A DNA stretch of 62,676 nt, filler included, from Sphacelaria rigidula (lineage: Eukaryota): NCBI GenBank assembly GCA_964200075.2. It is 7 parts of 7 records of this genome, joined end to end, with 100 filler letters (N's around TTAATTAATTAA, not from the genome) between each part and the next. Parts side by side here need not be neighbours in the genome. Positions count along the whole stretch, not along the records: positions 44,843 to 53,709 come from CAXNAA020009893.1; 6 more parts are not named here. The stretch is one strand, 5' to 3'. How positions within the stretch are numbered: the stretch's first letter is position 1; every line of letters starts with the position of its first letter. Shown here piece by piece: positions 7,876-56,682 of this stretch. A program made the translations under genes and the position numbers. The notes beneath the pieces are model-generated. The model saw nothing but the letters and a program-made list of their open reading frames with translations. It did not search any database and was not told the DNA's origin.

Positions 7876-8004
7876 GAGGGGGGTACGTGCTGTGGCCGAC
7901 GACGTAACCTCCCCCCCCCCCCTAGTACGTTGCTCCGTCTCGAAAGGGATGCGTGGTCAATGATCGAACGACTAAGGCAAGCAGCAAATGAGTACGCCCC
8001 CCCC
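7876..8004 (-). mobile_element. Dispersed short repeat, putative tRNA-derived SINE (longest copy)
   Basis: Reverse complement begins GGGGGCGTACTCATTTG and runs to TTTCGAGACGGAGC. The same sequence recurs at 42219-42290 and 53654-53709, and partially at 18018-18075. Confidence 0.55.
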
Positions 8005-8869: not shown

Positions 8870-8969
8870 NNNNNNNNNNNNNNNNNNNNNNNNNNNNNNN
8901 NNNNNNNNNNNNNTTAATTAATTAANNNNNNNNNNNNNNNNNNNNNNNNNNNNNNNNNNNNNNNNNNNN
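8870..8969. other. Artificial contig spacer N44-TTAATTAATTAA-N44; also at 17839-17938, 26807-26906, 35775-35874, 44743-44842, 53710-53809
   Basis: Six identical 100-nt blocks. TTAATTAATTAA gives stops in all six frames, as in standard contig-joining linkers. Confidence 0.95.
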
Positions 8970-10981
8970 CTCGGCGATCACCACTATCGCTCGACAGACT
9001 CGCATCATCGATGTTACTAGCATGTACCCAATTTTTCATGTATAACAGTGTTTTCGTGAGATTGAGATTAGATGATACGATTGAGAGAGGCTTTGATCGT
9101 TCGCTTTCAGTGAGTCATTTTTCTATTCCACGTGTGTTCTTCTTCACCTTCATCACTTGCGTATGCTTACAGCTTACACGTCGATTTCCTACCCCGGGAT
9201 ATCAGAGGCCTCAGTGGCCGGCTGTTGCAGAGAGCATGTTGGGCCTCGTGGATGTGTATTTTGGAACTAAAACGATTCATTCACTGATTGACCACTTTTC
9301 ACTCTCAATCGTATCATCCACTCTCGATCTCACGAAAACGCTGTTGTATGTTGTCCCAGAACACCGACAGCTGCGGTGAGATGTCGCCTCTTCTTGCTTC
9401 CTTGTCGCCTCTTATTGCTTTCTTGATGCAAGATCGTTTCGATACTCTTGTCCCTGTTTGGACAAGACGCGCGTCTGTGCAGTGAAAAACATGTTGAAAA
9501 ACAGGGCAATATTCCCGTCACCGCTACTACTGTCCTTCGTCACAAACATGCCAGCAAGGGTGGTGCTGCAGAAATATCAGATAGATCCATTTGGAACTCG
9601 AGGGGTGTTATTCATCGTCGATTTGCTCCGACGTCCCCAAGCCGGGCAGGCGAGCACAACAGCGTGCCACACGCCAGTCGTCAGGGGGTCCATGAGAGGT
9701 GGAAAACTCCTAGGGACCTCTTTGACATGCGGAGTGAAAAAACATACCTACGGTGGTGGCCGAACTGTTGCTAGCATCGTTCAGAGGGGGGCGTCAGCTG
9801 CGATCGGGAGCTTTCGTTCATCCACTCCACCTCCCGTCTGCAGACGTCTACCTATATAGGAAACACTGGGTGTGGATGTCACAGATGTCATCATGTACCC
9901 AAATTTGGAAAACCTTTGAAAACGGAAGAGTTTGTTTTTTCAAAGCACATCGACAAGGTCGAAAATTTCAAGTACATTTACAGGCAGAAATTCTATCTGG
10001 GGACGACTGCTTCACTGGGCGAGAGGATTCCGGGAAATTCAGGCGATGGTGCAGACGAGACAATATGATGACGCCCGGGCGCTAAATCGAGTGTACGTTG
10101 TCGACCAAAAGAAGCCAAGCGCGCCAAGTTGATGTTTTGTTGCAAGCCAGCTCATGCTTGTACAACCCCAGCGAGCGGGGTGTTCGCTCCTTGTGCGCCG
10201 CAGGATTCCCCTAGAAGTGTCGTTGACACCTCAACAACAGAAGAAATATAAGCAACTGCACAGAGCACCTGATGCTCGTGAGTTGTTGATCCTAAAAGCA
10301 TGCTGGGGCCTACGAGCGCCTGCTCATCGCAGAATATACGCGTTCAACGACAGTATTTGATGCAGGTGTCAGGTAGCCGTATGGAGTTGGGGGGGGGGGG
10401 TGGTGCTCGGGCTTCCGTTGTTCACTTCAGGGCGAATGCTGTCGGTTGCTAGACCTGCTATTAATCTACACAACATGACAAGTTCGGGTGATTCAAGATT
10501 GCTTCTGTATGGTACGGCGAAGCGTGACCAGTACGGTAGGGCTCGCGCCGAGGCACAAAATCACAGTTCATCGGATGGAACTTCATCGAATTGGAAAGGA
10601 AAAGTATGCTTTGACAACTACGCATGCTAAATGCAGAACAAATACGAGCATTTGCTGAGACAATCGCTCGGCTACAGCAACAGAACACCAGGGCAAAAAT
10701 GATCGAACAGGGGGCATAAAACACACTCGACAGCAATTGCCACGACCATTCTCGGCTCCAACAATGTCTGCTTTGCAGGATTGCGGGCCTGTACATGTGA
10801 GGATAACGCTCCATTCCAGCCTCGGGAGTTCAATCGTATTTGTAACAACCCTGTTCCCGACACGGATGCTCTTCATGCTTCTCGAAACTCCACTTGGCTA
10901 CATAGCTCATGCATGTGGCATCGCCAACATCGGGCGAGCAATATCCTCTCCAGGTCGCGTGCTCCGAGATTTCGGGTGCTT

Positions 10982-17785: not shown

Positions 17786-19475
17786 CTGCTTGTACAGCAA
17801 TATATGAGCAAGGAGGGGGGGGGGGGGGGGGGGGGTGGNNNNNNNNNNNNNNNNNNNNNNNNNNNNNNNNNNNNNNNNNNNNTTAATTAATTAANNNNNN
17901 NNNNNNNNNNNNNNNNNNNNNNNNNNNNNNNNNNNNNNCAATGAGTTGCTTTATTCTGTGGTATCGTCATTTCCAGAGACAGCCACGGCTTATACACTGC
18001 CTCACGGGTGTCTGACCAGTAGTTTGACCACTGACCACGCATTCCTTTCGAGGCGGAACATGTGGGTGGGGAGAGGGGTGTACTTATGATCTTGCATGCC
18101 GTAGTCAGAATACCATTGATCTCGCATCCCTACAAGGCCGGGACGGAGCACGCCGGGTTTTCGCCGGACGGGACGGGGGTGAGGGATGGCCGAATCACGG
18201 CAGAGTGTGTGCAAGAAGCTGGCGTGTATGTGTGTAGAATGCCAAAACATCGTGATCCACTTTCATCTATTTTTATGTCGAGTAAAACCTCGTCTACTGT
18301 ACGACATGGCTGGTACTTTCCCTTTTGAGGCCTGCAGTGAAGGCTGCATCAAGTCTCATGGCATTGACACTTGTGCAGAACAACAATAATCCCCTCCTTC
18401 CACGAAGCCCTGGACGCGCTGGCTGATATGGGTGGCGACTCTTTGACAAATATGTATGTTTGGTACAACAGCGACAAAAAAACGCTCGCGTGAAAATCAG
18501 CTTTCTGGTTTAGGATTGCACCGGATCTTTGAGTGCATGTCACCAATTTTTGTTTCCGTTGGTATTGACCGATGACCAAACATTCGACTTTTGGGTTCTT
18601 GAGGCAAGAGGGTGTCACCCGCTCCCGTCCCTCACTTTGGTTTGGGTCGCTCTCCTTCGGATAGTTGCCTGTTTGGCTACGTAGCTCACAACGACTGATT
18701 TCGGGACATCTTCATATCTCTTCCTCCCACGGGCTAGCCGAGTCCCTACGGGCGAGCCTTGATAATGGGTGAAGATTTCGCCCATTTATTTTGTGTCACA
18801 TATATGATATTCCCATCGCTCCAAACCATATTGCTCCATTGCAAAATATCTAACACTGTGAAGGCCAGTTTCTGAGAAGCGAAACTCTATGCGGTCTCTG
18901 CTCTTGTGTGATCCAGGACACTACTTACGAGGTACTCGTAGGCCTCCGTAGAAAACCCCCTTACTTTATTACACGGAGATTTTTCACACTTCGTGGCTAT
19001 CGCCTGAGAAGAGGCGCCGGAGAAAGTACGGCTGTGACATGCGCCGTCATGTGGCGGTATAGACTTGGCCGCCACTCGGTAGCGGTTCAATTGGCACAAG
19101 GGAAACCACGTAGGTCAGAAGAAAGCGGGTCCAACTCTGGACAGATAGGATCGTTTCAATGTGAGGACGTGAATAGCAAAGGAAGTTTATTCGACGAGAG
19201 TCCACGCGGTGCGGGAGTGTGGATCATGATCCAATCAAACGGGGATACTGAAATGCAAGGCATGTACCGGGGGAGAGATTTGTTGATCTCCTGAGGCCAC
19301 GGATTCGTCCCGAGGATTGGGAGGGGTTAAAGTGTGACGAGGAAAATACAAGAAACACGCGAAATGGACCCCCGGGCCATACGACCACGTGTGGTTCGAC
19401 CGTATTTTGTCTCTTGTGGATAAACATAGCTCACCGCTAGATACTGCAGACATAGTGAAACAAAACGTACATTAC

Positions 19476-25196: not shown

Positions 25197-26906
25197 GAAT
25201 TCCTGCCCTTAGTACCCGCCGATGAGCCATGCTTGCTCGCTCGGCGAAGTGCTGGGAGATGTAGCTCTGCGCGTCTGTTTCTTGTCCTGCCCACCTTGTG
25301 TGTGTGGGTCTATGTGGAATCATGAGCCGAACAACCCACGCGTTTTACGTTCCCTTTCGAATTTTCATCGGCATGTTCCTCCGTTCTCACAAAAGTTCAC
25401 TCACAGATGGTTAATATTCATGAGAAAATTTTCGAGGGCGATGAGAATAGAGCATCAGTCCTCGACTAATTTGATGACATAAAAAACTTGAAGCGTCACA
25501 GTCGTTCTCATCGTCATGTTTGTTTTTTGTCGCGACAACACGGGGCCCTGCTGCGAGTTGACGACTCCGATATAATGCCGCACTTTGAATGTTGAAAACT
25601 TTGGCGGCTCCATCTTCAGGAAATCCCTGAAATACATGCAATCCGTTCGACCAGGCATTCAAGTAAAAATGTTTGCTTTGGCCATTGTGGATCGCAACAG
25701 GTGATTGTAGTGACGGAGCAGTTCGAGGGCAAGCCTCTATTGGCTCGCCATCGCATGGTGACCTCCCTCTTTGCAGGCGAGATGGGTGGACCGAAGCCAA
25801 AGATGCACGGTAAGGTTTCTCCCGTGTTCTTAAGAGGAGTATTGTGATGCGCAAGACCCGGAATCAAGTTTGAGATCACGAGTCACAATCTTATCGTGGC
25901 CTTTCCTGAAAAAAATGGATTCGAGCCGGGATACCAAGGCCTTGAAAACTTTGAACCAGATATATGACAAGGCGAAGTGCGTTGCTAGAACCGCGCCGCG
26001 GTCTCTGAGCAGTTTTCGGTAGATTTTCGACTCGTGCGATTGCTGTTCGCCTCATTTTGAAGGTTCGTAGTTTCTTTCAAGATCTTGAACAATCGTACCG
26101 TACTGGTACGAACGGTTTGGTCGTTTGAACCAAAGCACCGGGGGCAGAACAGTGTCCCAGCATCATCAGTACGTAATTTGTGGTGGATACAGTACCATGG
26201 GTAACGAAACTAGCTCCGAGATACAGGATACAGAACACAGTTGGTGCGCTGTCGTCTCTGGTTTATGTTAGAAACTACTGTACCCGCTGAGCGCGGGAGC
26301 ACAACAAAAGTATCTGGTTCCCGCAGCTTCGGTTTTTGTTCGGGCGTTTTCCCTGTTCAACACGAGTTGTGATGATGGTATAAGGCATTACCTCTAGATG
26401 AAACGTTCCATACATTAACCCTTTTGGGACCGGACTCCCCACAATGGTATGTTTGTGGCACTTTCCTCCCACAATCATGTGTTAGCGGCAGGTGTCCATT
26501 TGTGTTGTTTTAAAGTCAAAAGTATGCCGGTTCACAAAAAAGCCCCTTCAGTATCATTTGATTTAAAAACAACACAAATGGACACCTGCCGCTAACATAC
26601 GAATGTGGGGTAGAGGGTCCCAAAAGGTTCAAAATTTTCCACCGTCTATGCTTGCTGTGCCAAGGTTTTCTTCGTTGACATAGGATAGACTCCAGACACA
26701 CATGGGCGGTTAGCAGGAGTGATCGACAACTGTTTTTTTTTTTTTCCCCTTCCAGTACGTAGACAACGGATCCATCCAGTTCACCGTCACCCCGGTCACC
26801 ACCGCGNNNNNNNNNNNNNNNNNNNNNNNNNNNNNNNNNNNNNNNNNNNNTTAATTAATTAANNNNNNNNNNNNNNNNNNNNNNNNNNNNNNNNNNNNNN
26901 NNNNNN

Positions 26907-35683: not shown

Positions 35684-37568
35684 TGTGACGGTTTAAGAGA
35701 CAAAAGTTAGTCGTGGGGGCTTGATCCCCGTCACTTTCACTCCGAGGAGGGCGACTCCCCTTGCCAGCGTTCTANNNNNNNNNNNNNNNNNNNNNNNNNN
35801 NNNNNNNNNNNNNNNNNNTTAATTAATTAANNNNNNNNNNNNNNNNNNNNNNNNNNNNNNNNNNNNNNNNNNNNAAGCCTACTGATTATCTTGCATTTGG
35901 ATGATAGCCTCCAATGAGTTGCTTTATTGTCTGGTATCGCCACTCCCAGAGACAGCTACGTCTTATACACTGCCTCATGGGTGTCTCACCGGGGAGCAAA
36001 ATGATGAACGGGTGTTACGCACCATCACACACACAACTCACCTTATTGCACGCGTTGGAGCAATGTCCGAGAGCCTCCTGTAGTTGCAGTAGCGGCGGGG
36101 GTTGCCAGGATGGTCTCTCGGGATCCGCAACACCTTCCCCCTGATCCACGGTGTTGCCTTCCATAGCGATTCGCATCATGCTACAAGCAGGATATCGGGG
36201 ACATGATCCATACAAAGAAAGAATCATTAAAACCTTCGGGCATTCACAGCTGGATAACCACAGTGTGCCAGCTCTACCAATATAACATCATGCCGAACCA
36301 CCACACGGACACGGTGGGCGTTGCAGGGGAGTCATAATGCTGCCGTGATGAATGCTGCCGTGATGACCGTTTCGGAACCCTTGTCATTACAGTCTGTCAA
36401 GTAATCTTGACAGAGTCCCACACTGTCTTTTTTCCCCACCTAGTCAGAAAGATTTTGTCCAAATTTCAGGCGGTATGGTACACCCTACGGAACAAAACCT
36501 TGCTACACCCGATAGCGCTCACGGGGTACTATCCGGTTGTTTTTTCAACGAAGCTCAAAAGACTGGAGTACCTGGTACTTTTTTTGCCAGCTTGCACCAA
36601 TCTCTACTTGAAAATACGACTCTCTTTCCCCTCCCTTCGAGAACTCAAAATAGTTTGCACCAAACGACAACTGTATGGCAGGAGGCCGAGTCTTCCTACC
36701 TGGCCTCCGCGTCACCCCAGTGTACCACAACGTCGTCCATCCCCGCCGGGGGGTTAGGTTGCCGATTGTGAATATTGAGGGAGTCCTCGAAATGCCTGTG
36801 TTTCACGTTCGGTCATTGTTCAGAGCACGGGGAGAATAAAGAGCAAAACACACGTCACGACAAAAACATTCGCGATTACCATCCAACGCACAACATACGA
36901 AGATACGCATACGGCAGCAGCGGGCATGTATTTGAATGATGACAGTCGGGACATGGGGTTCGGGCGGCGGAGGAAGGGAGATCGGATGGGAGGGGGCGAA
37001 AATTTGCTTGTGATTTGCGCGCAGCATACACTACAACTGAGCCGGGAAAACACGACTCGTCTTGACTTGTTGCAGTCCAACGGTAAGGCTCCCTCCATGG
37101 ATCAGGTACCTCAGCACAGGTTGTATACCTGTGCCTGACTGACAAGAGAACACGGCAATAGTGCAGGAAAACAAAATAGCCCAGACATGAAACGTCAAAC
37201 AACATTTGAAAGTCTGACCTCTGGATAATGACTGACCATCGATACAATTCATTTCAGGGGGAAGGGGTGCTTCCGTGACCAACAGGGGAGAACACACGGG
37301 AGCTACCGGTGCAGTATGTGTACTACGGGTCGAGCGAATCATCGCTGGTTTGAATCATCAAATTCACAATTCCTGAGGCCTGATTGGTCGAAAGAGATGA
37401 AAAAAAGGTTGACCGCGGGACATGAACGTTTCTACGTAAATATTGCGCTGTTCCACGTGCCTGGGGTGCAACTCTGAGAACAAAGTCCAAGGATTGATTC
37501 GTATGGTACGAATCAACCGACAAAAAAGGAAGTAATTTTCCACACTCTGGACAGAACATCATGTTTTC

Positions 37569-39343: not shown

Positions 39344-39894
39344 CAGTAGTGGGCGGTCTAACTATTCATTTTGTGGCATTTTGTGATTTTTTCGTGATTG
39401 ACGATTTTCTTGGGCTCTTTTCGCTCGCCACTCCATATCACATAGGGGATCTGCAGATATTTGTATCCGCTCCACATTCCAAGAAGAAAAAAACATCTGT
39501 ACTCAAAATCGAGTGACTTACGGGCTGACCGGTCATCGGGGGTCCTGCCACGTTTCAGCCAAGATTCTTACTCTTTTGTATTTTCGGTCGATCGAGCCCG
39601 TCCCGGTCATATATGCAAAGAAATGTACAGTTTTATTTTTTTGAAATTGCACCTACTCAGTGCACAAGGGCCGAAAAACTGTGTTTCACGGTCAATAACA
39701 GCCTCATGGTGAACGGGGTATTTACTTGTTTCGCCCGATAACACCAACTAACATTGACTTGGGCACTGTGTTTCGAAGAGAATCTGTTTTTTTGTACCAA
39801 AATCTACCGACGCTAGCAATTCCGAGTTCTTTCCAAGAGTTGTGCGCGAGGAAAAGCCCAAAACACCCGTAAATAGTAAGACCGCCCACTACTG
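39344..39894. mobile_element. 551-bp Tc1/mariner-type MITE
   Basis: 23-bp terminal inverted repeats CAGTAGTGGGCGGTCT(A/T)ACTATT with one mismatch, TA on both sides, no coding capacity. Confidence 0.9.
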
Positions 39895-41749: not shown

Positions 41750-44742
41750 TCATGACACTTCAGGCGCGACGTCGCCTTTCGGAATCATATCACCGGTTGA
41801 CCTTCAATGCAGTTAACCTTGACGCCCGGCTGAGTCGCTCCTGCTTAGCCTCCAAGCACCACCCTCACTGACAAAACATCCAGGTTATCTTCCACTTTTC
41901 GAATGCAACATCTCTCGGGGAACGGAAGCGCCAATGAACGGCCTTTCGTGTATTGCTCTGCTGCTGCCATCTTCCCTATTTTATCCAGTATTTGAACGAA
42001 CAAGATCAACCGAGTGAGATGGTCGATCACTGAGAGCACGCATGTGTGCAACAGGTCCCGTTGTGGGAAGGAGGGCAAATTTGTACTCTAACGAGTGGAC
42101 CGATACTCGCTCGACTGGTCGCTTGACTGGCACGTGCCCTGGCAATTTCGCGTGGTTGTGTGCTCTTTTTGTTTGGCATACTTGGCAATCTCAGCACCAG
42201 TCATTTGCATCGGCATGAGGGGGGCGTACTCATTTGTTGCTTGTCTCAGTCGTTTGACCATTGACCACGCATCCCTTTCGAGACAGAGCATATGAGGGCC
42301 GGGTCATGAAGACTGCTCCGGAGCCCTGTGCAAGGTAGGCGTATATTCGAAGTGTTCTACTGACAGGGAATCATCGTGGCAAGAGTGGAGGACTGTTCCT
42401 ATCGAAGTTTATGGCACTCCTAATTGGTCGCAAAACAGTGTCGCGCTTTCGTAACTCCCAGGGAAGTACTGTCTAAAGAGCAGTCCATTTTGTTCGAGGA
42501 AGTAAGACAGTAATGGCGTCGTCTCATTTCGGGGTGGTGAATTATTCGGTCCTCTAGGTGCGTGTAGTACGATCCAGATTTAAGAGCTCGTGCTTGCCCC
42601 AGCTTTTCAGGGCCAATTTGTCGACAACAACTGGTTTAAGCTAGCGAATACTGGGCAATACCTCGCGGTCACTCCTCACTGGCCCGACGTTGTACACACT
42701 ATTGGTCTAAAGGTGGTTATCACGATACGGCTGGGCTATGTGTAGCCCAAGACCACTACACGCGTTGGGGCACATGTCTTAGTGCCAGGGCTATCGCCAT
42801 CTCTCGTCGAATGGGGATAATCTGGACAGGGCGTCGGAAGTCACGAAGTTATTTTTTTCGTCGCATTACACTATTGAATTGTACAATTGCAATCCTCTTG
42901 TCCTGCATGACATATAATGCTGTCGTGCAGCGTGATCTCTTGCGCAGTTAACCGTCTGCTGCATATAATCCTCCCAGTGTTGCCGAATACTGTCTTTGTC
43001 TGGCCAAACACCGCTTTTTGAGGTACGCTACGATCCTCATGTCCCCATCTTCAGTTGTTGTCCTCGCAAATCAAATCCCCCAGCGCCTTTGTTACTTGCG
43101 TCGACGTGAGTCAATAAAATCTCCGGGAAAATGGGAGAATCGCAGTACAGAAGCAGACGCCAGAAGTTGCCGAACGTTTGAAATGGCTTCGTCCTGCGCC
43201 AGCCTCCAGTGCTTCCTCCAGGTTTAGATGCGGTTGGTTCCTTCTCCGTATGAGGCTTCACTTCCACGAGTATGGCAGTTCATTTTTGGGAAAGCGCGCA
43301 CGTCGCTCAGACGCCTGCCCCGGCCGGCACCTATAGACACTCACGGTCGACGCATGACACCTTCAGAGGTAGCTCCAGTCAGCCGTCTCACAGGACACTC
43401 CCCTCTAGAGGCGTCGGCGCCATATTAGGCGAGCAGCAGATGTCTGCATGAATGTCTGTTAAACCTGTTCGAAACTGTTTCTTTAATCGGAACGAGCTCG
43501 TCGTAGTCTCAAGGGATCAACTCATATCTCCCGTGTGCCCTACCTGCTGTTGAGGCATTGGACCAGCACTCGCGCAGCCAGCCAAGATGCTGCCATCAAA
43601 TTTCTCATAATGCTAGTCACGGCACGCTTTCGACAACGTGATCTTTTCATGCATTGCCAGCGGAAATTGTCAATCTAGTGGTGGTAAAACCGGCCAAACA
43701 CAACCCGAAGGAGTGGCGTTTTACAGCTCTGGCCGCTGATACGCAAATGCTGCGGGTTTTCGTCATTCGTGAATTTCAGAGTGCCCCCTGCGGTATAGCA
43801 GGCCACGCTGAAGAGCAAACGAATCAAATGAAACACCCTCGGCTCTAAAAACAATGAGGACGCAATTTCTCACCATGCCCGGAGAACCACAAATGTTGTA
43901 AACAGCTAGTTCATGGGTTCCTACAGGGATGAAAGCACAAACACCCTGGACAATGAGGACACTAATAGTCCATTACTCCAATAATAGACGCGGGGAGAAG
44001 CCTATCGATATATTCTGTCGAACACAATAGATGATGAAAAACACATTTTAATATATATACAAGGTTCTCCTTCGGGCGGTTGGTACGGGCCTCCTGGGGG
44101 TGACGCAAGTCGAAAATATATGGTCAAGAGAAGCTACTGTTGTATCTCAATGTACAGTAGTGAACGTGGCTGTACAAAACATCGCATGTGTTATTGGATG
44201 TCGTTCGGAAATATGGGAATTCGGACGGAGGCCGACGGCGGAACCGCCGGTGTAGGACATGTGTGGTACACCGGAGGTGCCAGAGTGCGAAGTAGCTCTC
44301 GTGCCACAAAAACATGACAGCCGGAGGCACTTCCCGAAAAGTTGGAATGCGTGGAACATTTTAATGGCATGTTCTTTGTACATCACTGTGGCTTCAACGT
44401 CACCGGGCCTTTTTTTAGACAGGGTGATTGTTTTTTGCGGCAAAACATTCCTGTGCTGCCGCGCTGCTGTGCCTTGTTCAACTCGCCAACGGCCCATTGC
44501 ACGGTCTTATGTTTGGTGGTGACTAAGGCCAAGGCACTGTTCGATTGTTTTCAACTGCTTTGCTCTCATGTTCTCGTGACATTGGCGACATAACCGGTGT
44601 GTTCATCCTCCCGAATGAACGAGAACGCGACAAAGAGAAACACGGGGAAAAAATACCCCGCCAAACGTAATCCTCTTCCAAGTGTCGCATGATCTTCAAC
44701 AGGCTTTTGTGGTTCGGGATCGACACCCCGCGAAAAAGGGCC
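41750..44742 (-). mobile_element. Heavily decayed Ty3/Gypsy pol (RNase H followed by integrase); boundaries approximate
   Basis: THVDASNKGAGG (RNase H, ~43080-43115) lies upstream of VLSVIDHLTR (integrase, ~42015-42045) on the minus strand, the Gypsy domain order. Many stops. Confidence 0.7.
42219..42290 (+). mobile_element. Putative SINE copy inserted in the Gypsy remnant
   Basis: Same ~70-nt head as 7876-8004; atgaggg occurs on both sides (possible target-site duplication). Confidence 0.6.
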
Positions 44743-46756
44743 NNNNNNNNNNNNNNNNNNNNNNNNNNNNNNNNNNNNNNNNNNNNTTAATTAATTAANN
44801 NNNNNNNNNNNNNNNNNNNNNNNNNNNNNNNNNNNNNNNNNNCCACTAAAACCCCCTATCAACTTGGCGCAGTACACGCACCGCCCTGCTCTCGAGAGCT
44901 TCGGCCCTAGTGTGACCACTGTTGGGAGGCAAGCGCATGATGCGCGGAAATACTACTCGTGGTAATAACGCAAACACAAACGGTGCGGATGCTAGTCTTT
45001 CCACGATGATATTATTTATTGCATGTAAATAAATGAATGCGTCGTCACCATCAGGGAGTCCTACGGGTGATAGGTATTCCAACAAGCAGATGTTGAACAG
45101 AACGCAATCCTCGACTACTCAATGCCGGGTGATACGGACACGGTCTGCCCCTCACCAGGGGATGTGCTAAGCCGTCTCGCTATTAGCATACACGTCGATT
45201 CCATTCTACCTCCGTGTACATGTTGCAAAATACAGAAACCATTGAGTGCTCACCGCGCCGCTGCAGTTGGGTGCTCTTGTCCGCTTAGAAGTCCCCGGCC
45301 TCCGGCAAGCTCTCAGCATCCGACTCCTCTTCGCTGTCTGCCGCGCTACTACCTGGTTTTACCGCCAACATCGTGAGGAAGTTGGGAGCAGGGGTCGGGT
45401 TGCGATGAAGCCCACGTCAGCGGCCATATAGAGGGACATCGGACGCCAATAGATACCTGTATACGTTTGAGAATGAGAAGCGGTCATCAGCGAATGAATC
45501 GTTCCAGTTCCAAAATGCCCCCCCATGAGGCCCGATATTCTTCCTGTAGTAGCTTGTGCGGAAATGTCAATAATAAAAGTAGCTTGCCACTGACGCGCTT
45601 GATATCTCTGGGTCTATCGACGTGTAGCTGTAAGCACACCGCAGAGATGGAGACAAAGGAGAGCACACCCGAACGAAATATTGGCTGAGTTAAAGCGAGT
45701 GATCGAAGCCACTCTCAATCCGCGTTCTACTGTCAATCTCACGAAAACGTCGTCGGCTCCAATCGAGCAGGCAGGGAAAATTGGCAAGTACCGCTCGTGT
45801 TGCACACCCGTACAGCCGCACACCCTCCCCACGTAACCTGCATGCCAACCGACCCTACTAGCGGCACATGCCCTGCACCTGCGTCCGAGTCCTCTTCGTC
45901 TGACTACCAGTCAGTCGTACGCCGATCCAACCCCCCCGATTCGCTGCGGCCACCTGCGAAGCGCACGCAATGGAGCGGCACCGTCAGACGCCCCACCCGT
46001 TCTCGTGCACGTTTCCCCGGTTCGACTGACCCCAAAAGACGACACTCTGTTCATATTCGTTCCTCGGTCATTTTCTCCGACATTTCGGCACGATAGCATA
46101 CCCACTTCTCATTTGTAACCAGTGGCGGCGACCAAACCCCAGTCCCCAATTCAACTGCATTCGCCAAGCTCTGTCGTGATGCCCATATCCCTATACTACA
46201 CGTGCAAATGTTGCACATAGTTCCGGACGGTCTAACTATCTTGGAGTGCCCGAGTGTTTTTTTATCGCGTACTACTCTTCGATATAAGGCGAAGTTGCCA
46301 GCGTCGGTACATTTTGGTACAATAACCGGACCGTCCTCGAAACACAGTGCCAAAGTCAGTGTGAGTTGGTGTTATGGGGCGATACGAGTACATCCCCTGT
46401 TCATGAGGAGGGTGTACTTGAACGTGTAACATAGTTTGTCGGCTCTAGCGCAAAGAGTAAGGAGAGGTTGAAATGGATCAAACTGATCGTTTCTTCACTA
46501 ATGGGATCGGGGTAAGCTCGCCAGACCGAAAGAACCGAGTAGTCAAACCCCGGTTAGCACATAACTCACCCAAAAGTGAGAACAGGAAAAAAATGTTGCT
46601 TGGAATGTAGGGCATTTGCCGACGAAGCAGATCCTCGGCGGACACATTTGCGCCGCTAGTGTTCGAGCATACACGCCATCGCCTACGCGAACACTGAAAT
46701 CGACAGACACACCAACCCCACGTCAGTGGGCCGCATTGGCGCGTGAGGGCAGTGTT

Positions 46757-49700
46757 TCACTCACCGTGTGCGGGCCCCGCCACCCCCGATGCAGCACCCA
46801 CTGCATGGCCCGTCGAGATGGTCGCGGCCGCTGCGTCATCCGTGCCCATCTCAGAAGGTCCGCATGCACCGTTGCACCCACAATATCCATATACATATGG
46901 CTTGCCCCTCTTGCCACAACTGCAGTTCCTGCATTTGTGCCTCGCAGCCGTGTCTGGTTTACACTGACACTTCAGGAACTTTACTCGCCCCTCCTGCATG
47001 AGGAGAGCATGCGGCGACAGTCTGAACACCATATTCTCCTTCGTCAGAGGCACACTGTCGTCCCCGTCACTTGTACACCAGCCGCGGCCTTCGAACGACG
47101 TCGGAGGGGTTCGTAACTGGATGGCTGCTTGCCAATATTCCAAGACGGAGTCGGCTCTGCGAACGTGCAGCTCTAGTGCATCCCACCTCGGGCAGTTCTT
47201 CTTACCCGTTGCTCCTTTGGCGGTCCAGATCGCATTCTGGACGACGTGTGCAAATTTCCGGGCATCCCTATTAACCTGGGCGGACTCGAATAGATCAGCG
47301 GCACCGCCCGAAAAAGTCGGGGTGAAGACTTTCACATGCTCCTCGAAGTAACATGCGCACAGCATCTTCACGGCGGCCGTTTCGTCCACCTGCCATCTGC
47401 CATCGCGGACGAAAACGATGGGTTCGTCGAACAAGCGAGGCATGGCGATAGCCTTTCGCACGTGACGCAGCATGGTCTCGAAGCCCATGTTGTACATCGC
47501 CGGCAGGAAATTGCACCCGGCCAGGAAGTACAGAACCATTAATAACACTCCTTTCGCCGCGTCCGACAGCCACGCTGGCGCCACGCCCACCCCTGCGGCA
47601 GCACCCGCTGCCCATTCCTCGCTATTGCATACAGCATCGTACACTCTATTCACGAGAATAAACTCCTCCGCTCCCTGTTGCTTCTTCTTCCGAACCTGAA
47701 CACCCACCTTGTTGGTTCCGCTCCACGGTATGGCACCGATCGCCATAGCCAATAACACATGCATCACCTGATCTGTGTCTATGGACGTTACCATCCATCT
47801 ATTCAGGGTACCAACGGTCGCGCACGCCTTGTAGTGCACAATCAGGTGAGTCATGGCCAGCTCCCCCTCACCGATGTGGGCACCAGGCATACGCCTCGAG
47901 TCGCCATACCCCCAAACCAGCGCATCAGGTGCATCGCCGGGGTGACCGGCGGCAGTCCCTTCCTGCCCCAATCCTGCGGAGCCTGTGCCGCTGACACCAC
48001 CAGAGACACTGCCGCCGCCCGCCGCATGTCGCGAAAGTGCCATATCGGCGGCACTCCTCCCACCCCGCCCGGCCGTCCCCGTATCGGCATTGCCGGAAAC
48101 CGCTACTCCAGGTGCGGCGCAAAAGGCCGCACCGGGCATGGCCCCGCCGCCTGAATACCGCCGGCCGGGACCACTTGCCGCAAGGCCCACGGGCACGTTC
48201 ACGCTACGCGTGCGTAGCACTTGGGGCATGGAGACCCGGGCGGCGTCGCCACAGACCGGGTCACGTTTCCGACTGGTTCCCACGATACCCCCGCAAATGG
48301 GGGCGCGGAGGGGGGGCACACCCTCTGCAGGTGTGGCCCCTCTCATATCACTGTAGCCTGGCGGGACGTTTTCCGAGCTGGGCGCTGCAATCATGACAGG
48401 ACGTCGATATGTTGGCGACGGTTGCTGGGGGTCAGGGAGTGCAGCTGACGGCGGAATTCCTTCTGGCGTTGGTAGGACCGGGTGCACTGGAAGAGGCCAT
48501 GATATACCGGTGAAGATGAATGTCGCGTTCCCCATCCGGCCTTTGCCGTCCTCGTGCTCGACGAAGTACTTGCAGATGGCCGCAGCAATATCGTCCCTGT
48601 TATTGTGCGCGCGTAGATATGCCTGGAAGTCGCCGCCGGTCGGGATTTCGTCGGAAGAGGCGGGGTCGAACACACCATACGAACCGGCGAGGGCGGCTTT
48701 TCGACCGGCTTGTTCTGCAGCTTTAATCGGCGGCACGAGCGGCCAGTAGTCATAGCACAAACCAACGAAAGTGGCCCCGAACGCCGAATACTCGGCGAGG
48801 ATTTTATCCCTGAACTCCGGCATTAGTGCCACCGTACCGGCGTTGAGAACACTGGACGGGGGTGTACGGTGGAGTTCTGTCGCCAAGTCGACAACAGAAG
48901 CGTGCACTGAGCCATGCGGCGAAGGTTGGACGGCATCTGCGCACTCGCTGAGCATGAATTGTCGTATTCCCTTTGACTTATTTGCTTTGCGGCCGCCCCC
49001 GTCGCCGGCGTGTGCCAGCGCCAGAGGCAACACCGCACCGAGGCTGTGCTTGAGTATCGCCAATTCCTCCGCCGTTCGCACGCGCGCACTGCTCAGTATA
49101 TCGGCCAGGATGGCATGATATTCGTTCCCCTGGAGGGTTACGTCTTGGTAGCGCTTCTGTAGCGCACTTTTCCTCTCTGGCTTCTTTGAAGCTTTCGTGG
49201 TCGTGTTTTGTGCCTTGAACACGGGGAAAGTGGTCTTCTTCAGTCGTCCTCCGTTTCGACCCCCTCTGGCGTTTACCACCATTAGACTGAAGGACTTCAA
49301 CTTGTCTGCTCCCTCCTGTGAGAATGCGGTGCACTTCCGCACGAATGGCAAGACCTGCTGCACCGCCTTCGCCCTGTCCCTGATGAGCTCCGCTGTGCCA
49401 GCGCGCTCCTTCCGATCTCGATACAGCTGGTCGTCACCTGCGTTCACGACTGCTTACCGGTTCTCGCAAATCGGAGCCAGCTTGTTTATGAACCCGGGGG
49501 TGATCCTACCGATCGCTGATTTCACCACCGTATTGGTCATCTCCTGATACTCGTCGAGGGCGCAGTTGTGGTGTTCTCGTCCGGCGAAACTGACAGGGAA
49601 TAATGTCCCCGTCGCGCGAAAGTCCTCATCCGTCATCCTTGTCACTTGGGAGATGTGAGTTGCGCACAGACGCTGGTATCGCAGCTTCTGGATAAGAGCG

Positions 49701-52165
49701 AAGATGGGCGCGGCCTCTCTCAGTGACGCAGTCCTTAGGGAGTAATCCCTAACCCGTGTGCCCATCCGGAACCCCAGATACGCCGGATAGTGATCCAGGA
49801 GGGACGGCAGCCAAAATATCAGGATCACGTGGTTGGAGGCCCGCTCCCGGAGCCACGACACCACGTCTTCTCCCTCACGGCTTGCATCAACACCCTTCTC
49901 CGTCTCGTATTTCTCGATGATGACACACCATATGGCTTCGAACGTGACGGTGAGGAAGTGATGACTCCTCCGGTGCTTTTTCCCCGCCCCCGCGTGCTTG
50001 TCGTCGCCGCCGAGCACTTCAGCAATGCTCTCGATCCCTGCCCCCCAATACAACACCAGCAAAGCCTGCGTCAGACGGGGCATGAGATGCCACCCGCCAG
50101 GGTGGGGGACGATATTGCGCCATCTGGTGGGGTTAGAAGCCATGGCGTTCAAACTGTACGTCTCCTCATCCCCCTCGATCCAAACCACCCGGCCCTTCTC
50201 GCCCTCGGCGTGGCAAATCTGCAAGATCCGCTCCAGTGTCTTCTCGTTGTCAGCTTCTGCACTTTGTCGACCCAGACTGGACGAACAGGTTTCTGGACAC
50301 GAGATCGCGCCCCCCATGATCCAGCTCCTTCACCCATTCGGCCTCCAGGCATGATCGTCCGGGGCCATTTAAAGTATCCAGGGCTCCGCGCTACCGTCGA
50401 AGCCAACAGGGTACTCCACCTCTCCATACTATGTTCGTGTCCAGCACGATCCCGCCCTCGCTTCAGCAAGTCGAGTGTCAGGTCCTTGGTTTTCATCCAC
50501 AAATCCTTGCTCCCGAAAGTAGCAGGTGGGATCAGGGGCAGACGGGGGTGACGCGCGGTGGCCCCTGTGAATGAGCAGTGTTCCGCCGAGATGTATTTCG
50601 CGTGAGGGTCGCAGTCGTTGTTGTCGAACGCTGCCGAGACGCCGATGTTGCGGTCCGCCGGGATGAGGTCCTCATCCTTTCTAGTCGCCACCACATTCTC
50701 ATGATCCCATCTCTGCTTGTCAGACATGCAAATGTTTAGCGCCGACAGTAGGCGCGTAATCTTCTCCCCCGCTCCATGCGATTTCAAGGCCTGGGACAAC
50801 TGCAAGTAGTGATCAGGTATGAAGGATTTTCGTAGAACCTTCTTCGCCATCATCGTATCCAACATGTACGTGAACACGGCATCTTCCGAATACTGGTCGG
50901 CATCTGCAGCGGTTTCCCGCGTGGCCGCGTCCAAGTTTATCCCACATACTGAGACGATGAACGTCGTCAGCTCAGGGGGGAAGGTGTCACGGACGTACCT
51001 TTTCACGTCGGGAGTCCGCATCCCGGCGGCAAAGGCCTCACCTTTGGGAAATCGTGTATTAGCCCATTTCGCACATTGAAACATGCTCGCCCACAACATC
51101 TTCGCCGCCGTGTTTATCATCCCCATATTCCCGTCCCCACCACCTGCCGGAGCTGCTCCGGAGTACCAGCGCACCCCCCCTGATCCGCTGCACGTGAAAC
51201 CGCTGCTTCCCGTCTGTTCTTCTCACGCCGAACTCGCGCTCACTGGCGTAGAGATTCGCAATCCACCACTCATCGAATACAAGCGGAATGAGCACCCTAA
51301 ATTTCCGCCTGTCGTCTTGACCGACAACACCCCCAGAGAAGGAGAGGTCACGAACGCCGCTGACAGCGGAGGCGACCCGGTCGAGGACTGTGGTGGCGTC
51401 CTTACTCAAAGTCCTCTCGACAACATCGTTTAATCCTGCTCGGCTACGCGCCTGCCGCACGATATTGATGGCGTCGCCCAGATCGAGGAAGCGCCCGGCG
51501 GCAATCTCGGCGACCACGTTTCGCGTAGCAATGTGAGAGGTGGCGGCGGCCGCCCCTCTCCCAGGAGCATCGGAGGTGTCGAGGCGCAGGAGGTATTGGT
51601 CTACCGTCCACTTGCCGCCCTCTCCCCTCTTGAACAAGGTACTCTCAACTTCCCTGGTAAATCTCCAGACGCAGCTTTTGCAGAGGCGACTGTCTGCGCG
51701 TAGATTGATGCTGTCCCCACCCCGGTGCTTTGCCCCAGCATCCGTCGCTCGAAAGAATTCTTGCATGAGTCGAAATGTTTCCCCGGTTCTCTTCAACTCC
51801 GTCTTTGGCGCGCGGCAGCATGCTTCACACTTTACCGCCGACCGCTCTTCCTTCCGCTTCTCTCTCTTTCGGAGGGCATAGAAGCAATCGGGGGCAGTAC
51901 ACCGGCACCCGCGGCTCGGCACCCAACCCGGCACGACAGAAGTCTCTGCCGCCGCGCTGCTGCCATCCGATCCCAAAATTCCGCGGCGTCGGCGACGGCG
52001 TCGTCGTCGGGAAGATGCCGAAACTGGGGTTCGGAGCCTTGTGTGACCGGCGGCCGGCGGTGGCACGCGCAGCACAACAAATTGCCGGAGTGCACGGGAG
52101 TACCGGGACACACCGGACAGTGTGTCGGCCACGCTTCCGTGGCACCACAAACCGCCTTTCCGCAT
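46757..52165 (-). mobile_element. AcademX-like DNA transposon gene: Zn finger, Academ DDE transposase, XPG/FEN-like nuclease, C-terminal Cys cluster; two frameshifts and one stop
   Basis: Four consecutive minus ORFs (368, 341, 287, 896 aa) join into ~1,800 aa. Motifs in order: CEAC...LCKSC, AAFDNND (~50620), GDEETY (~50165), GGWH (~50095), GKKHRR, LDEYQE..N (~49550), GEGE (~47868), IDTD (~47778), LAGCNF (~47515), ALELHVRRA...W, GW, CQC-x9-CRNCSC...CGCNGAC (~46865-46970). Termini not found. Confidence 0.8.
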
Positions 52166-52616
52166 GACAACGACACCCGTCTCCGCCTTTTGGGGGTATG
52201 CACGTCGGCCTGCCCAGAGTGTGGTTCTTCTGTAGAGGTGGGTAGCGCCGGCCGTTGCCCCCCCAAGAGGAATCCCGGCAGCATTTCCGCGATACCTCCT
52301 CCTCGCGCCGTAGACTGTCAGCGACTGCGTCGGCGGGTGCCGCCCGCTGCCGACGGCATACGCTCGCCGACGGCGTCAGGTGTGCCATCGCTGGTGATAC
52401 CGGGCGACGGTGCATCGCCGGAAGTGGCATCACGATCACACCGCGCCAAGTGGGGTGAACGCTGGACCGCCGCGTCCCTCCTCTCATCCGCCGACATACA
52501 GCCGGGTGGGCAGGTGGGGGGGGGGGGGGGGTTTCGCTTCCGCCACTGGATAGGGGGGCCCCGAGGTCGGGAGAGGGGCGGGGGGGGNNNNNNNNNNCCC
52601 CCCGCCCGCCCAACCA

Positions 52617-52650
<34 letters not shown>

Positions 52651-53653
52651 GTTCCGCTTCCGCTACTGGATATGGCGGCCCCTCTTCGCCGATGCCCACT
52701 GTTCCTCCGCTTCAATCGTTCCCAACTGCGCTCGATGGCATACACGACGACAGCATAAGCAGCACGGGTGACATGCGGCGCGGGGGGTGGATCGTGATCG
52801 TCGCATCGACGGTACGTCAATCACGCGGACAGGAGTCGTACTCAATCAGCCGTGGGTCACAGCAATTTCCAATTATGGGTCGCAGCTATAGCTATGGCAT
52901 ATTCGGCAACAGACAGTAGGTATAGTAGGCCCTACGCAAGATACCCAGTCACAATATTTGCTTCTGCACGGAGCTCGTTGTGCGTGGTGCAGATCGTAAA
53001 CGGAACCTAGCGCACGTGCTGCGTTTGCTGCCGCGCGGATGACTTGAAAGCGCACGACGGCCGTGTGCTGAGTGCTGCATTCATCATGTGGTTTAGCGAC
53101 ACATGGTAGCCTTCCTTCGCCGACACGTAGCTGTTGACAACTAGCACACGCCACACAAATTAGGACAAGGACAAGCGACATTTCGGCGCACTGGAAGTCT
53201 TATTTTTTCAGTCGGGCTACCAAGATTCTCCCGCACCAGCATTAATCTCGGACCTCAGTTGTTTGCCTAGACTCTCCTCCATTGAAATCTTGACACAGGA
53301 CCCCAGCAGATCGCTTATCGGAATCTTAACTGGTGGGGCGCATGGTGCTTCGCAATCGCAAGCGGCTGATCGAGGGAAAAAGTGTGGCATCCACGCGTCG
53401 GAGCGGGCGCAAGCGTTTCTTGTCGAGGGTTGTCATGCACGACACACGGGATTTTACAAATTGGGGGTGGAGGTTTCATTGGGGATGAAAACCCGGAGAA
53501 TTACAATCTTCGTATCCACACAAAATCTTCGAGGTACGGGTCAATTTCTTCACTTGCTGGTAGCTATTGACAACGACTACACACCCAACTAAATATGATT
53601 ACAAAAACCGAAATATCGGGGTCCTAGGCGAAAGAACGAGTCATCCTACGATA

Positions 53654-53709
53654 GGGGGGGCGTACTCATTTGTTGCTTGCCTTAGTCATTTGACCATTGA
53701 CCACGCATC
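53654..53709 (+). mobile_element. Putative SINE copy, cut by a gap
   Basis: gggggggcgtactcatttgttgcttgccttagtcatttgaccattgaccacgcatc. Confidence 0.6.
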
Positions 53710-56682
53710 NNNNNNNNNNNNNNNNNNNNNNNNNNNNNNNNNNNNNNNNNNNNTTAATTAATTAANNNNNNNNNNNNNNNNNNNNNNNNNNNNNNNNNNN
53801 NNNNNNNNNGTTGCTGCTTTAAACGACGATCTCACTCGGAATTTCGAGCAACAAATGGCCCGAAATACCCCCCCCCCCCCATCGTAGGATGACTCGAATA
53901 TTTTTTTTCGTGTACAGTAGCACGCGGGTGGTAAAATCACGTAGAGGAGGAATAATATGATTGATACTGGGCGTATTTGGTGGCGTGTATGTTTGATTTT
54001 TTTAATTTGATTAGTTTCAGCGACTGGATTCCTTTTGTTCGCGAAAATATATTTGAGGAACGGTTCGTCATGTAATGAATCTGTGAAACGATTGGATTGG
54101 GGCAAGGTCAGGACCAGTAGAAAAGAAATGATCGCGTATTTATTGCAACCCTTTCGGAGGTACTCCGGGCAGTGTGTCGGTTCACGGCCATCGCCGCACC
54201 GACACTCATGTCGAGATCTCACACTGCTGTGCTTACAACACAATGTTATAATGATAGTGTAGCTAATGCACTGGCTGAGGCCTCTCAGTACGAGTACCAG
54301 GAGATACCATTGGGTCCAGCTGACCCAAGCTCCCATGTGGGCACAACGTACGACCTATAGCTATCCACCAAGAACAATCACATAGTAGGCTCATCCATGT
54401 GCAGACTCTTGACTAGGAACTCACGTGTTTCATAGCGTCATGTTATATCTGCAAGTCTCTCTTGCTCAGTAAAGCCGGGGCGTAGCCACAGGAGCAGAGC
54501 GAAGTGATGGCTCAGGGTAGAGACGAAGGCAAAGCCGGTAACTGATTGAGATGGGTCAACGCTATGTGGCGAAGCCAGAACAATCCCAACTATTGACAAT
54601 AGCAAACGCGATAACAACGCGTCACGGAACTCAGGGTCTACGAGCAGACCCGCACAGCGTATATCTTGCAACGTCTCCGAGCTTCATCACACTAGCTCAT
54701 CCTAGACGAGTCATTATGCAGTTGAATCATCATCACCTCGGCACAATGATATTGCGCCGAGGAACTTCAAAATTCAACGAGAAATGGCTCTTCTGAGCAA
54801 TGCTACGATATGGGTGCACGTTTTTGCGAAATTATGTCTAGTTCAGGGGCTGCTAACGATTATAGATGCACGAAAATATGGATCAGGACATCCCCGTTTG
54901 CAAATTTATTCGGGATGTCTCCAGCACATTGGAAAAGTAATCCTGGCGTACTTTCACATATGTTCATAGGTCGTGTTTTGCATGAGATAAGGGGCTTTTA
55001 ACAATTCTAACCTCAGGAAATATTTCTGCACCCCTAGCGTAGCATCACTCTTCTACACTACACTCGTACAAAAGCATGAAGCGAAGAAAAAAAAAACCTC
55101 TCCCACACCTCTGAAAGGCGAGCATCGCTGCGATCCGACACATCATCAAACGTTCAATCCACGAAAAGGAAGACGTTGTATCTACGTGACACTCACGCAC
55201 CTATGTTGAACAAGACAACACACACGCAAGTCCATCGACAAAGTAAAGCACTAAATGGTACGCACGCGTAGACTTCATATACCAACGGAACAAGAATGGG
55301 ATGCCAGACAATCCGGGAAGAGAGGAGGGAAAACGCAGTTGTGGTAAAGCATCGCGGCAATTGCTTTGGTCGGACGCAGATCCAAGTGAGCTCCACGCCT
55401 TTGTTCGATTCTGTCCCGACACATCCGTCGCGTATAGCGAGAGTGGCACTCCGCTCGTTTCCGTGGCAGGGCGTTCGAAGTATCAAACCTGCCTTGAAAA
55501 AGGCGTGCCGCGTGAAGTACAATGCGATGGGGGGGGGGAAGCTACGCAGCAACAGGGAGATAGAAGCGGGGATGCAGCCGAGGTTCAGGCTTGGTGTGCC
55601 CTAAGTGCGACATGCAAAATCCTGTGGGAGGAGGCACGAGCCGATTCAAGACGATCTCAGGGTTAAAAGCCAAGGGCCATTGGTGGGAACTTTACGTTCA
55701 GCCCGGTGGATCAACTATCGCGTGTTATGAGCAAAACTTGATGTCAAATAAAAACCAATCCGTCAGGACGCAATACCCAACTCAAAGCAATCGTCCGGCG
55801 GAGATACGGCCTACAACAGGGGCGGTATGATGGGTCATTCCCGGGGGAACATTGGACCACGAGCAACGGAACGACACAAGAGAACACACCCGTGTCGCCA
55901 GCTGACCAGGCTGCTCCACGGGATAGGGGAAAAACAAACAAACGAACGCATCCGGATGAATTATCGAAATGCAGTAACTCTCTTCAACCTGAAACAGTCG
56001 TCGGGCATCAATATGGCCTACAACAAGGGCGGTATCATTAGCAGTACACGGTGTAACCAAGGACCCGTGCAACTAGACGATGTAAGGGAATACTCCCGTG
56101 TGGCGAGCTCTCTTGGCTGGCGGCGGGGGGTTGAGCAGTGGACTCTTTCTACGATAGCCCCCCCCCTAAAAAAGTGCATGGTTTTGGGAGGCAAAATCTT
56201 CACGTAAATCGAAATGGGAAAAGCTGAGCACAACGAGCAGCTGGGGAATTCTCACGACTGGATTCGTTCTAGCCAGTATTGCTAATATGAGGCGCTTCAT
56301 GCAGCCTGAACTCAAGCATCAGCCGCTGTATGCTCATTTGTTTCGTGACACTTTTGGCTGGCTTTGGGGGGGGGGCTATCGTTGAAAGTGTCAGTGACCG
56401 CAACAACCACACCCAGAAAATAAGTAATCAATTTTCCAAGCATGCGAGGAGGCTGGACTAAATCTACAGTCCTCTCATCGCGTAAAGGAATCTCGAAGAC
56501 AAAAAATAAAAAATAAATGACACTAGATGCTCAGGGGACACGGACAGAGATGCGACAGCGACAAGAAATATGAGTACGGGTACTAGAAACGCAGTCACCA
56601 ATGAGGCGAACTCAGCATAAGGAAACACGATACCAAATCCTGTGAAGGGCTACAATGAAGCAAAGGGGAGGGAGGGGGGGGG

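Follow-up and report, generated by a model that had tools for sequence, protein, structure and literature searches.

A probable AcademX-type transposon in a brown-algal genome

We analyzed a 62,676-nucleotide stretch of DNA (the window) from the Sphacelaria rigidula assembly GCA_964200075.2 and found that one of its scaffolds very probably carries a decayed, once-autonomous Academ DNA transposon of the nuclease-bearing AcademX type, resident in a brown-algal (Phaeophyceae) genome. The element occupies a minus-strand run of open reading frames (ORFs) at 46757-52375. Its original frame comprised ~1,800 to 1,850 codons for one protein (coding region alone, ~5.4 to 5.5 kb), with domains in the order Cys/His finger, winged-helix region, DDE transposase, split FEN/XPG-type nuclease, and CXC cluster. 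An earlier reading of this DNA (the original prediction) had proposed an AcademX-like fusion of a transposase and an XPG nuclease, and the proposal is supported here by Academ profile blocks, a DDE fold, and a 5′-nuclease fold. AcademX is said to have been set out as a lineage within the Academ superfamily by Kapitonov and Jurka in 2010 and by Kojima in 2020. Its hallmark, a transposase accompanied by a nuclease instead of a helicase, is recognized in the window from predicted fold and motif order rather than from Pfam. The nuclease shares a reading frame with the end of the transposase (ORF 46757-49453), and Pfam finds no helicase domain in any of the four ORFs, which a stop-to-stop listing gives as follows:

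51059-52375, minus strand: ORF1, 438 amino acids (aa)
50149-51222, minus strand: ORF2, 357 aa
49454-50329, minus strand: ORF3, 291 aa
46757-49453, minus strand: ORF4, 898 aa

Most of the sequence features named in the original prediction were recovered. The listing contains the four-ORF minus-strand run; ORF3 and ORF4 are in one frame, with only the TAA at 49454-49456 between them. The region is GC rich (0.57 to 0.64 per kb across 47 to 53 kb, versus 0.45 in the kb either side of the scaffold), and it is apparently intronless, in that homology to longer relatives in tblastn runs collinear and uninterrupted across frames with no intron required. The motifs occur in the predicted order, AFDNNDCDP, IEGDEETY, PHPGGWH, LDEYQEMTN, IGEGE, SIDTDQ, and LAGCNFLP, followed by a nine-Cys cluster. 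They are not chance resemblances, since an exhaustive phmmer search with the ORF3-X-ORF4 read-through (P0001, 1190 aa) returned 403 proteins at E ≤ 1e-3 (152 of them reaching 1e-10 and 43 reaching 1e-30), mostly fragmentary gene models, and the motif columns are conserved in these matches. A word-indexed protein search with P0001, covering near lengths only, gave no match.

The transposase core fits the Academ profile

The transposase part of the element comprises the following features:

50368-51120, minus strand: DDE core part 1 (tblastn), containing FDNNDCDPH (50602-50628), the first catalytic Asp motif
49457-50272, minus strand: DDE core part 2 (Pfam DUF6589; Academ blocks)
50156-50185, minus strand: second Asp motif, VWIEGDEETY, Asp codon 50168-50170
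50021-50110, minus strand: PxxGxWH...GAGIESIA block
49628-49681, minus strand: RYQRL block, within the helical insertion domain
49535-49564, minus strand: catalytic LDEYQEMT block

We compared the window with the RNase_H_Academ hidden Markov model (465 states, 44 sequences) from Supplementary File S1 of Muszewska et al. 2017 (PMC5751038), which, according to the methods of that paper, was built from the alignment of Yuan and Wessler 2011 with later Repbase entries. Five ungapped log-odds blocks representing 77 of the 465 profile states were scored in six frames over the whole window (~125,300 positions). Block 1 (states 2 to 10, fDNwDikPl) found FDNNDCDPH at 50602-50628 (18.3 bits, rank 1 of 125,300), and block 2 (states 186 to 195, vvltgDqply) placed VWIEGDEETY at 50156-50185 at rank 16 of 125,294 (10.7 bits). 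The other three blocks each ranked 1: block 3 (states 216 to 245, vpflgfFHiekqalysigkemdgsGleela) against VPHPGGWHLMPRLTQALLVLYWGAGIESIA at 50021-50110, without a gap (18.6 bits); block 4 (states 400 to 417, kYqelslfYaffrgilpe) against RYQRLCATHISQVTRMTD at 49628-49681 (16.2 bits); and block 5 (states 447 to 456, vhlDealEql) against CALDEYQEMT at 49535-49564 (16.7 bits). The five sites are collinear with the profile, all of them on the minus strand, and the near-invariant profile residues D3, N4, D6, D191, H223, D450, and E454 are all matched by the window. Block spacing is also kept, with PxxGxWH followed 17 residues on by G-[IL]-E-x-[IL]-A, ungapped. The distant full-length relatives P0082, P0106, and P0123 are closer to the consensus than the window is, with, for example, LDEAHEMTINKDVK and DWVIPFLGDWH.

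The sole Pfam match of the transposase part is DUF6589 (PF20231), on ORF3 (49457-50329; 30.9 bits, E = 1.6e-7, gathering cutoff 27). Ten of 16 relatives scanned also match DUF6589 at E ≤ 0.01, and seven of these reach at least 27 bits.

Because the DDE region of the window is frameshifted, we modeled an intact relative in its place. P0003 (836 aa) is the closest such relative, 57% identical over ORF3 and 47% over ORF2, and its AlphaFold model has a predicted local distance difference test score (pLDDT) of 78.3 and a predicted template modeling score (pTM) of 0.66. The model contains a five-stranded RNase H-like sheet (residues 360 to 368, 382 to 390, 474 to 483, 513 to 517, and 539 to 543), a helical insertion at 545 to 707, and then a Glu-bearing helix at 724 to 738. 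In a VIA-align comparison with 48,161 PDB representatives, P element transposase scored best (Z = 10.6 over 334 aligned residues), ahead of Hermes (Z = 9.1) and ISCth4 (Z = 8.8); retroviral integrase cores (Z of ~8), Tn5 (Z = 8.1), and RAG1 (Z = 7.7) came next. An RNase H fold had been anticipated for this region, and matches at Z = 8.8 to 10.6 agree with it: on the model, the core is a DDE transposase of RNase H fold with an all-helical insertion between the second Asp and the Glu.

These structural matches also bear on the alternative that the element comes from a different insertion-bearing DDE superfamily (P, hAT, Kolobok, MULE, or KDZ/Plavaka), gained a 5′ nuclease independently, and resembles Academ only superficially. 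The best matches of the model are indeed to P element, Hermes (a hAT transposase), and ISCth4; no solved Academ structure exists for comparison, and KDZ transposases, too, can have CxC cysteine clusters next to them. Against this, four Academ blocks rank 1 and one ranks 16, with order and spacing both as in the profile, and at E ≤ 1 the four ORFs show no match to the hAT, P, MULE, or KDZ/Plavaka transposase families of Pfam. We regard an origin in another superfamily as very unlikely and retain the assignment to Academ.

A predicted split FEN/XPG/XRN-type nuclease follows the transposase

Downstream of the transposase, in the same protein, we identified the following nuclease features:

48482-48979, minus strand: XPG-N-like half (fold match), model residues 50 to 215, pLDDT mostly >85
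48887-48889, minus strand: codon of the conserved Asp in SVVDLAT (conserved in 14/18)
48749-48751, minus strand: codon of the conserved Asp in LCYDYWPLVPPIK (conserved in 15/17)
47942-48481, minus strand: Gly/Ala/Pro-rich spacer of 180 residues, predicted disordered (model residues 216 to 395, pLDDT <50)
46973-47941, minus strand: XPG-I-like half with helical arch and H3TH-like region (alignment, model, fold match)
47867-47869 and 47861-47863, minus strand: Glu codons of IGEGE
47777-47779 and 47771-47773, minus strand: Asp codons of SIDTDQ
47510-47512, minus strand: Asn codon of LAGCNFLP, Asp in 27/34 aligned relatives

An alignment of 25 relatives over the C-terminal part shows conserved IGEGE, (S/T)xDTDQ, and (L/F)xGCDFLP motifs, with VVDLAT and CYDxxxLVPxIK upstream of IGEGE, an order that resembles that of the XPG-N and XPG-I motifs. 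Conservation of the acidic columns, counted among aligned relatives with a residue there, is high (D80, 14/18; D126, 15/17; E420, 22/25; E422, 22/25; D450, 27/30; D452, 25/30; and Asp at position 539, 27/34). Six of the seven acidic, metal-binding-type positions are kept in the window and the seventh is Asn, with equivalence to FEN1 assigned by motif order and secondary structure.

The window's own nuclease could be modeled directly (46760-49126, 789 aa, 58 aligned sequences). The model has a pTM of 0.71 and 343 residues at pLDDT ≥ 90, and values below 50 are limited to the spacer (216 to 395), the tail, and two short stretches (1 to 4 and 30 to 48). In VIA-align, ranks 1 to 17 are all 5′ nucleases (Z = 8.1 to 14.4), and rank 18 drops to Z = 5.8; the PIN/XPG fold expected from the original prediction is recovered. 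The individual scores are 14.4 and 13.9 for XRN1, 13.8 for EXO1 (root mean square deviation, 3.6 Å over 271 of 348 residues), 12.5 and 12.2 for FEN1, 12.0 for T5 exonuclease, 12.0 for XPG, and 11.4 for GEN1. Matches cover model residues 48 to 718, that is, both halves across the spacer. The C-terminal half of the protein is therefore predicted to adopt the fold of FEN/XPG/XRN-type 5′ nucleases, with a disordered spacer separating its N and I halves. We call it FEN/XPG-like by fold and not a member of a Pfam family, because neither Pfam nor PDB sequence matches were obtained.

Probable DNA- or zinc-binding regions flank the catalytic domains

Upstream and downstream of the two enzymes lie regions that probably bind DNA or zinc:

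51916-52194, minus strand: N-terminal segment, in a frame that differs from the first ORF of the original prediction, within ORF 51832-52317
51236-51706, minus strand: CxxC and winged-helix-like region, to which P0003 residues 4 to 160 align at 32%
46862-46969, minus strand: CXC-type cysteine cluster, nine Cys (CQCKPDTAARHKCRNCSCGKRGKPYVYGYCGCNGAC), with conserved Cys columns in the alignment of relatives

Residues 76 to 155 of relative P0018 match 51916-52194 at 35% identity, with a joint E value of 1.3e-16 with the next piece (tblastn). This segment carries a basic PKRRRR stretch and a Cys/His-rich stretch, the latter a probable zinc finger. In the P0003 model, residues 45 to 166 match TFIIIC tauB winged-helix domains (Z = 8.3), making 51236-51706 a probable DNA-binding domain. 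The Cys cluster that had been placed after the nuclease is indeed there, with nine Cys in conserved columns, and it is probably zinc binding. The window's own cluster has no Pfam match; at the same place in P0123, a distant relative, the Pfam TCR/CXC family scores 16.6 bits, below its cutoff of 23.5.

Taken together, these domains suggest a cut-and-paste scheme in which the N-terminal domains would bind the element ends, the DDE core would cut and join the transferred strands, and the built-in structure-specific 5′ nuclease would process the other strand or 5′ flaps at the donor or target. Such a role for the nuclease would fit the link between accessory enzyme and short AcademX target-site duplications that is drawn in PMC10045372.

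This copy has decayed

Aligning longer relatives to the window with tblastn placed homology in frames −1 (52194-51916), −3 (51937-51236), −1 (51120-50368), −2 (50369-50253), and −3 (50272 onward), which corresponds to ~4 frameshifts plus one in-frame TAA in this copy. The lesions and the limits of the coding region are as follows:

52282-52284, minus strand: possible start ATG
51956-51958, minus strand: frameshift 1, where contigs of other copies or strains (X1, X2, and X4) have 4 additional bases; frame change
within 51153-51232, minus strand: frameshift 2, frame −3 to −1; some public-run contigs have an additional T after 51153 or an additional G after 51232
~50369, minus strand: frameshift 3, bounding the third-frame segment 50253-50369
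50253-50369, minus strand: short third-frame coding segment (tblastn), between frameshifts 3 and 4
~50258, minus strand: frameshift 4, one base absent from every covering contig in X1, X2, and X4
49454-49456, minus strand: nonsense codon TAA, in frame, with P0003 and P0005 homology ungapped across it
46757-46759, minus strand: final stop TGA, within the splice-donor-like GGTGAGTGA (46757-46768)

We considered whether the TAA might belong to a splice donor (CGGTAAGC, 49452-49460, minus strand) and rejected this; it is not an intron boundary, because P0003 and P0005 homology continues ungapped on both sides. The 3′ end of the coding region is less certain, and a further 3′ exon is possible, because the final TGA sits in GGTGAGTGA. 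An explanation of the frameshifts as homopolymer assembly errors is unsupported (0 of 5 lesion sites lie in a homopolymer run), and some of them may still be errors of this assembly.

The nuclease is also altered at a catalytic position, where LAGCNFLP has Asn (47510-47512); among 34 aligned relatives this residue is Asp in 27 and Asn in 4, including the window. With ~4 frameshifts, one nonsense codon, and Asn replacing one metal-binding Asp, this copy cannot be active, and on its sequence we class it as a decayed pseudogene with ~5 coding lesions and one altered catalytic residue. The original prediction had described the element as near-intact. The long ORF run behind that description is real, but the lesions and the Asp-to-Asn change make the term too generous. 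The three joins implied by its four ORFs likewise give way to the ~4 frameshifts and one TAA shown by relatives, and its start ATG at 52165 is probably internal, with the coding region beginning farther upstream.

Multiple copies and internal deletions

Contigs of four public sequencing runs were aligned to the scaffold at an identity of at least 92%, yielding 1,433 to 32,505 mostly short contigs per run, tens of thousands in all, that are 92 to 99% alike over the scaffold. In run X1, summed depth over the element body is ~70 to 560, compared with 55 to 65 for individual long contigs, which as a rough figure indicates several copies. Two internal-deletion joints recur among the runs. The joint 45387>51686, present in three of them, removes 6298 bp; 47081>52152 removes 5070 bp and occurs in two, reaching a depth of 897 in X1. 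Internally deleted derivatives are typical of DNA transposons. The family appears to be multicopy and has left internally deleted derivatives behind. No RNA run is listed among the public runs that share sequence words with the scaffold; run X6, which we guess to be RNA, has a few contigs of low depth over the element, plus one that spans a deletion joint, and is uninformative on expression.

Several results weigh against reading the locus as an AcademX transposon. No terminal inverted repeats (TIRs) above chance occur between 44843-46756 and 52166-53709, and no target-site duplication is readable at the locus, where the termini of this single copy are undefined; both are defining structural features of a TIR transposon. 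The element may extend beyond the 8.9-kb scaffold, or its termini may be too short for detection in a single copy. The Academ comparison was ungapped and covered 77 of 465 profile states, and the DDE fold comes from a relative 57% identical to the window copy. Foldseek returned nothing at E ≤ 1e-3 for either model: for P0003 the top match was Hermes at E = 0.02, and for the nuclease the top matches were XRN2/Rat1/XRN1 (2.5e-3), then EXO1 and FEN1. Neither Pfam XPG_N (PF00752) nor XPG_I (PF00867) matches the nuclease region, searched as three overlapping pieces with E values up to 10, and a profile of the 25 relatives finds no FEN/XPG chain in the PDB by sequence, the rows returned being at chance level (e.g., ribosome-inactivating proteins, E = 0.07). 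Finally, the structural matches of the modeled nuclease fail to separate XPG/Rad2-type from XRN-type enzymes (Z = 12 to 14.4).

The missing ends bear on the view that the locus is a domesticated host gene, or its pseudogene, derived from a transposase-nuclease fusion and no longer mobile. Neither termini nor TIRs nor target-site duplications were found, and relatives are annotated as ordinary "unnamed protein products." A host gene is nevertheless hard to reconcile with a sequence that is multicopy in the public runs and accompanied by internal-deletion derivatives, has a paralogue at 88% protein identity, bears ~5 disabling lesions in this copy, and sits on a short, repeat-rich, unplaced scaffold. 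We consider domestication very unlikely and a mobile element the better description.

Relatives share the architecture and point to a brown-algal host

The closest named proteins are two "unnamed protein products" of Sphacelaria rigidula (88% and 81% identity). Lower identities are seen for a Pylaiella littoralis protein (41%, to the nuclease part) and for an Undpi1 record from Undaria (38%). A brown-algal host, as had been supposed, is supported by these names. The paralogue P0004 is 88 to 94% identical over 50853-49682 and has no frameshift there. More distantly, P0123 (1809 aa) and P0082 (1335 aa) each combine DUF6589 with a homologue of the window's nuclease/Cys region in one protein, and because these distant relatives share the order, the fusion is a family trait and not an accident of this locus. 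Protein-atlas neighbors of the nuclease part, which are language-model look-alikes, are unnamed eukaryotic clusters only. Searches of metagenome contigs gave 70 pattern matches with a single-protein query and 438 with the DDE alignment, none of which was confirmed.

In two of the distant relatives, an OTU-like cysteine protease domain precedes the transposase core (P0106, residues 351 to 498, 40.7 bits; P0082, residues 29 to 140, subthreshold at 19.5 bits). No OTU-like domain is seen in the window copy.

There is only the slimmest chance that the sequence stems from contaminating animal DNA or from a giant virus, such as a phaeovirus or another large DNA virus, integrated in the genome: brown-algal genomes do carry integrated phaeoviruses, the few labeled members of the nuclease look-alike clusters are mostly arthropods, and the best-matching public DNA run is labeled "algae metagenome," but 0 of 10 pattern matches were confirmed in 2.9 million viral contigs, which also bears on the question of a giant-virus gene raised with the original prediction, the closest relatives are named from three brown-algal species, and four further runs labeled with one organism share 37 to 50% of sequence words.

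Comparison with known systems

The AcademX-type transposon of the window resembles known AcademX elements in several respects. Its DDE core fits the published Academ RNase H profile, all three catalytic motifs included; it encodes a nuclease rather than a helicase with the transposase, the arrangement given for AcademX in PMC10045372; and it is large, with a coding region of ~5.4 to 5.5 kb, where the 100 curated consensus sequences of bivalve Academ families in PMC10294476 average 5,565 bp. It differs in its host, a brown alga, whereas the Academ literature that we found covers animals and fungi, and in a nuclease too divergent for Pfam XPG_N/XPG_I. AcademH elements of fungi and animals, which carry a transposase and a helicase, share the same-superfamily transposase core, and DUF6589 provides a further link to rust fungi, but the window has a nuclease fold in place of the helicase. 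In published accounts, AcademH target-site duplications are 9 to 10 bp and those of AcademX 3 to 4 bp, a difference tied to helicase versus nuclease (PMC10045372); Academ occurs in most fungal taxa and, among fungi, is most abundant in rust fungi (PMC5751038, Table 1); and Pfam DUF6589 is enriched in rust fungi (bioRxiv 10.1101/2025.10.24.684071).

Among cellular enzymes, the modeled nuclease is most like XPG/Rad2 proteins (FEN1, EXO1, GEN1, and XPG) and XRN in fold (Z = 11.4 to 14.4) and like XPG/Rad2 in the order of its acidic motifs (D, D, ExE, DxD, GCD). XPG itself also has a long disordered spacer splitting its N and I halves. Unlike XPG/Rad2 enzymes, the window nuclease is fused behind a transposase, is without a sequence-level Pfam or PDB match, and in this copy reads GCN, not GCD, at the last motif.

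We found no report of Academ from brown algae or other stramenopiles in the searchable literature, a search that did not extend to Repbase or Dfam, and "Academ" has 0 occurrences in the main text of the Phaeoexplorer preprint. Academ has also been reported from the red alga Chondrus crispus. To our knowledge, Academ is among the least-studied eukaryotic DNA transposon superfamilies, and no member has been studied biochemically. The element type is known, though poorly catalogued, and the present example is of significance chiefly for annotation and for the host range of the superfamily. With a recognizable AcademX-type family present in three or more genera of brown algae, Academ now extends to the stramenopiles, and proteins now listed as "unnamed protein products" or as DUF6589 proteins can be named. 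On the models, the element's nuclease would truly have the FEN/XPG/XRN fold, in a split form that contains a spacer.

More tentatively, and with rather less likelihood than not in our estimation, brown algae may host an old, recently active AcademX lineage of their own, with a 5′ nuclease that lies beyond sequence recognition and is as XRN-like as it is XPG-like. If so, genomes of Sphacelaria, Pylaiella, Undaria, or the Ectocarpus type that carry intact copies would offer a tractable nonanimal system, one that could address why the Academ superfamily always needs a second DNA enzyme, either nuclease or helicase.

Scaffold context and other repeats

The window as a whole consists of 7 unlinked, unplaced scaffolds of 8867 to 8869 bp, ordered by length and joined by linkers:

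44843-53709: scaffold carrying the element, 8867 bp, with artificial linkers at both edges and a 10-N gap at 52588-52597
8870-8969, 17839-17938, 26807-26906, 35775-35874, 44743-44842, and 53710-53809: artificial linkers, N44-TTAATTAATTAA-N44

Because unlinked scaffolds were joined artificially, no inference from neighboring genes is valid across the window. The contrast once drawn between an intronless element and host genes nearby is baseless for the same reason; the pieces are not chromosomal neighbors.

The flanks of the element-bearing scaffold consist of other repeats that are common to further scaffolds of the window. Downstream of the ORF, 46259-46531 is 73% identical to 39582-39855 and 45461-45748 is 67% identical to 9050-9314, both on other scaffolds; these shared stretches are either other dispersed repeat families or noncoding parts of the element's own family. 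Upstream of the coding region, two 59-bp direct repeats (52504-52562 and 52624-52682, 85% alike), each with a long poly-G run, bracket the 10-N gap at 52588-52597. At the scaffold edge, 53427-53709 contains an ~55-bp repeat, often with a poly-G run before it, copies of which occur at 42219-42273 and 7948-8003 on two other scaffolds at 93 to 94% identity. Over these last 280 bp, summed depth in run X1 reaches ~1.5 million, versus ~60 for single contigs.

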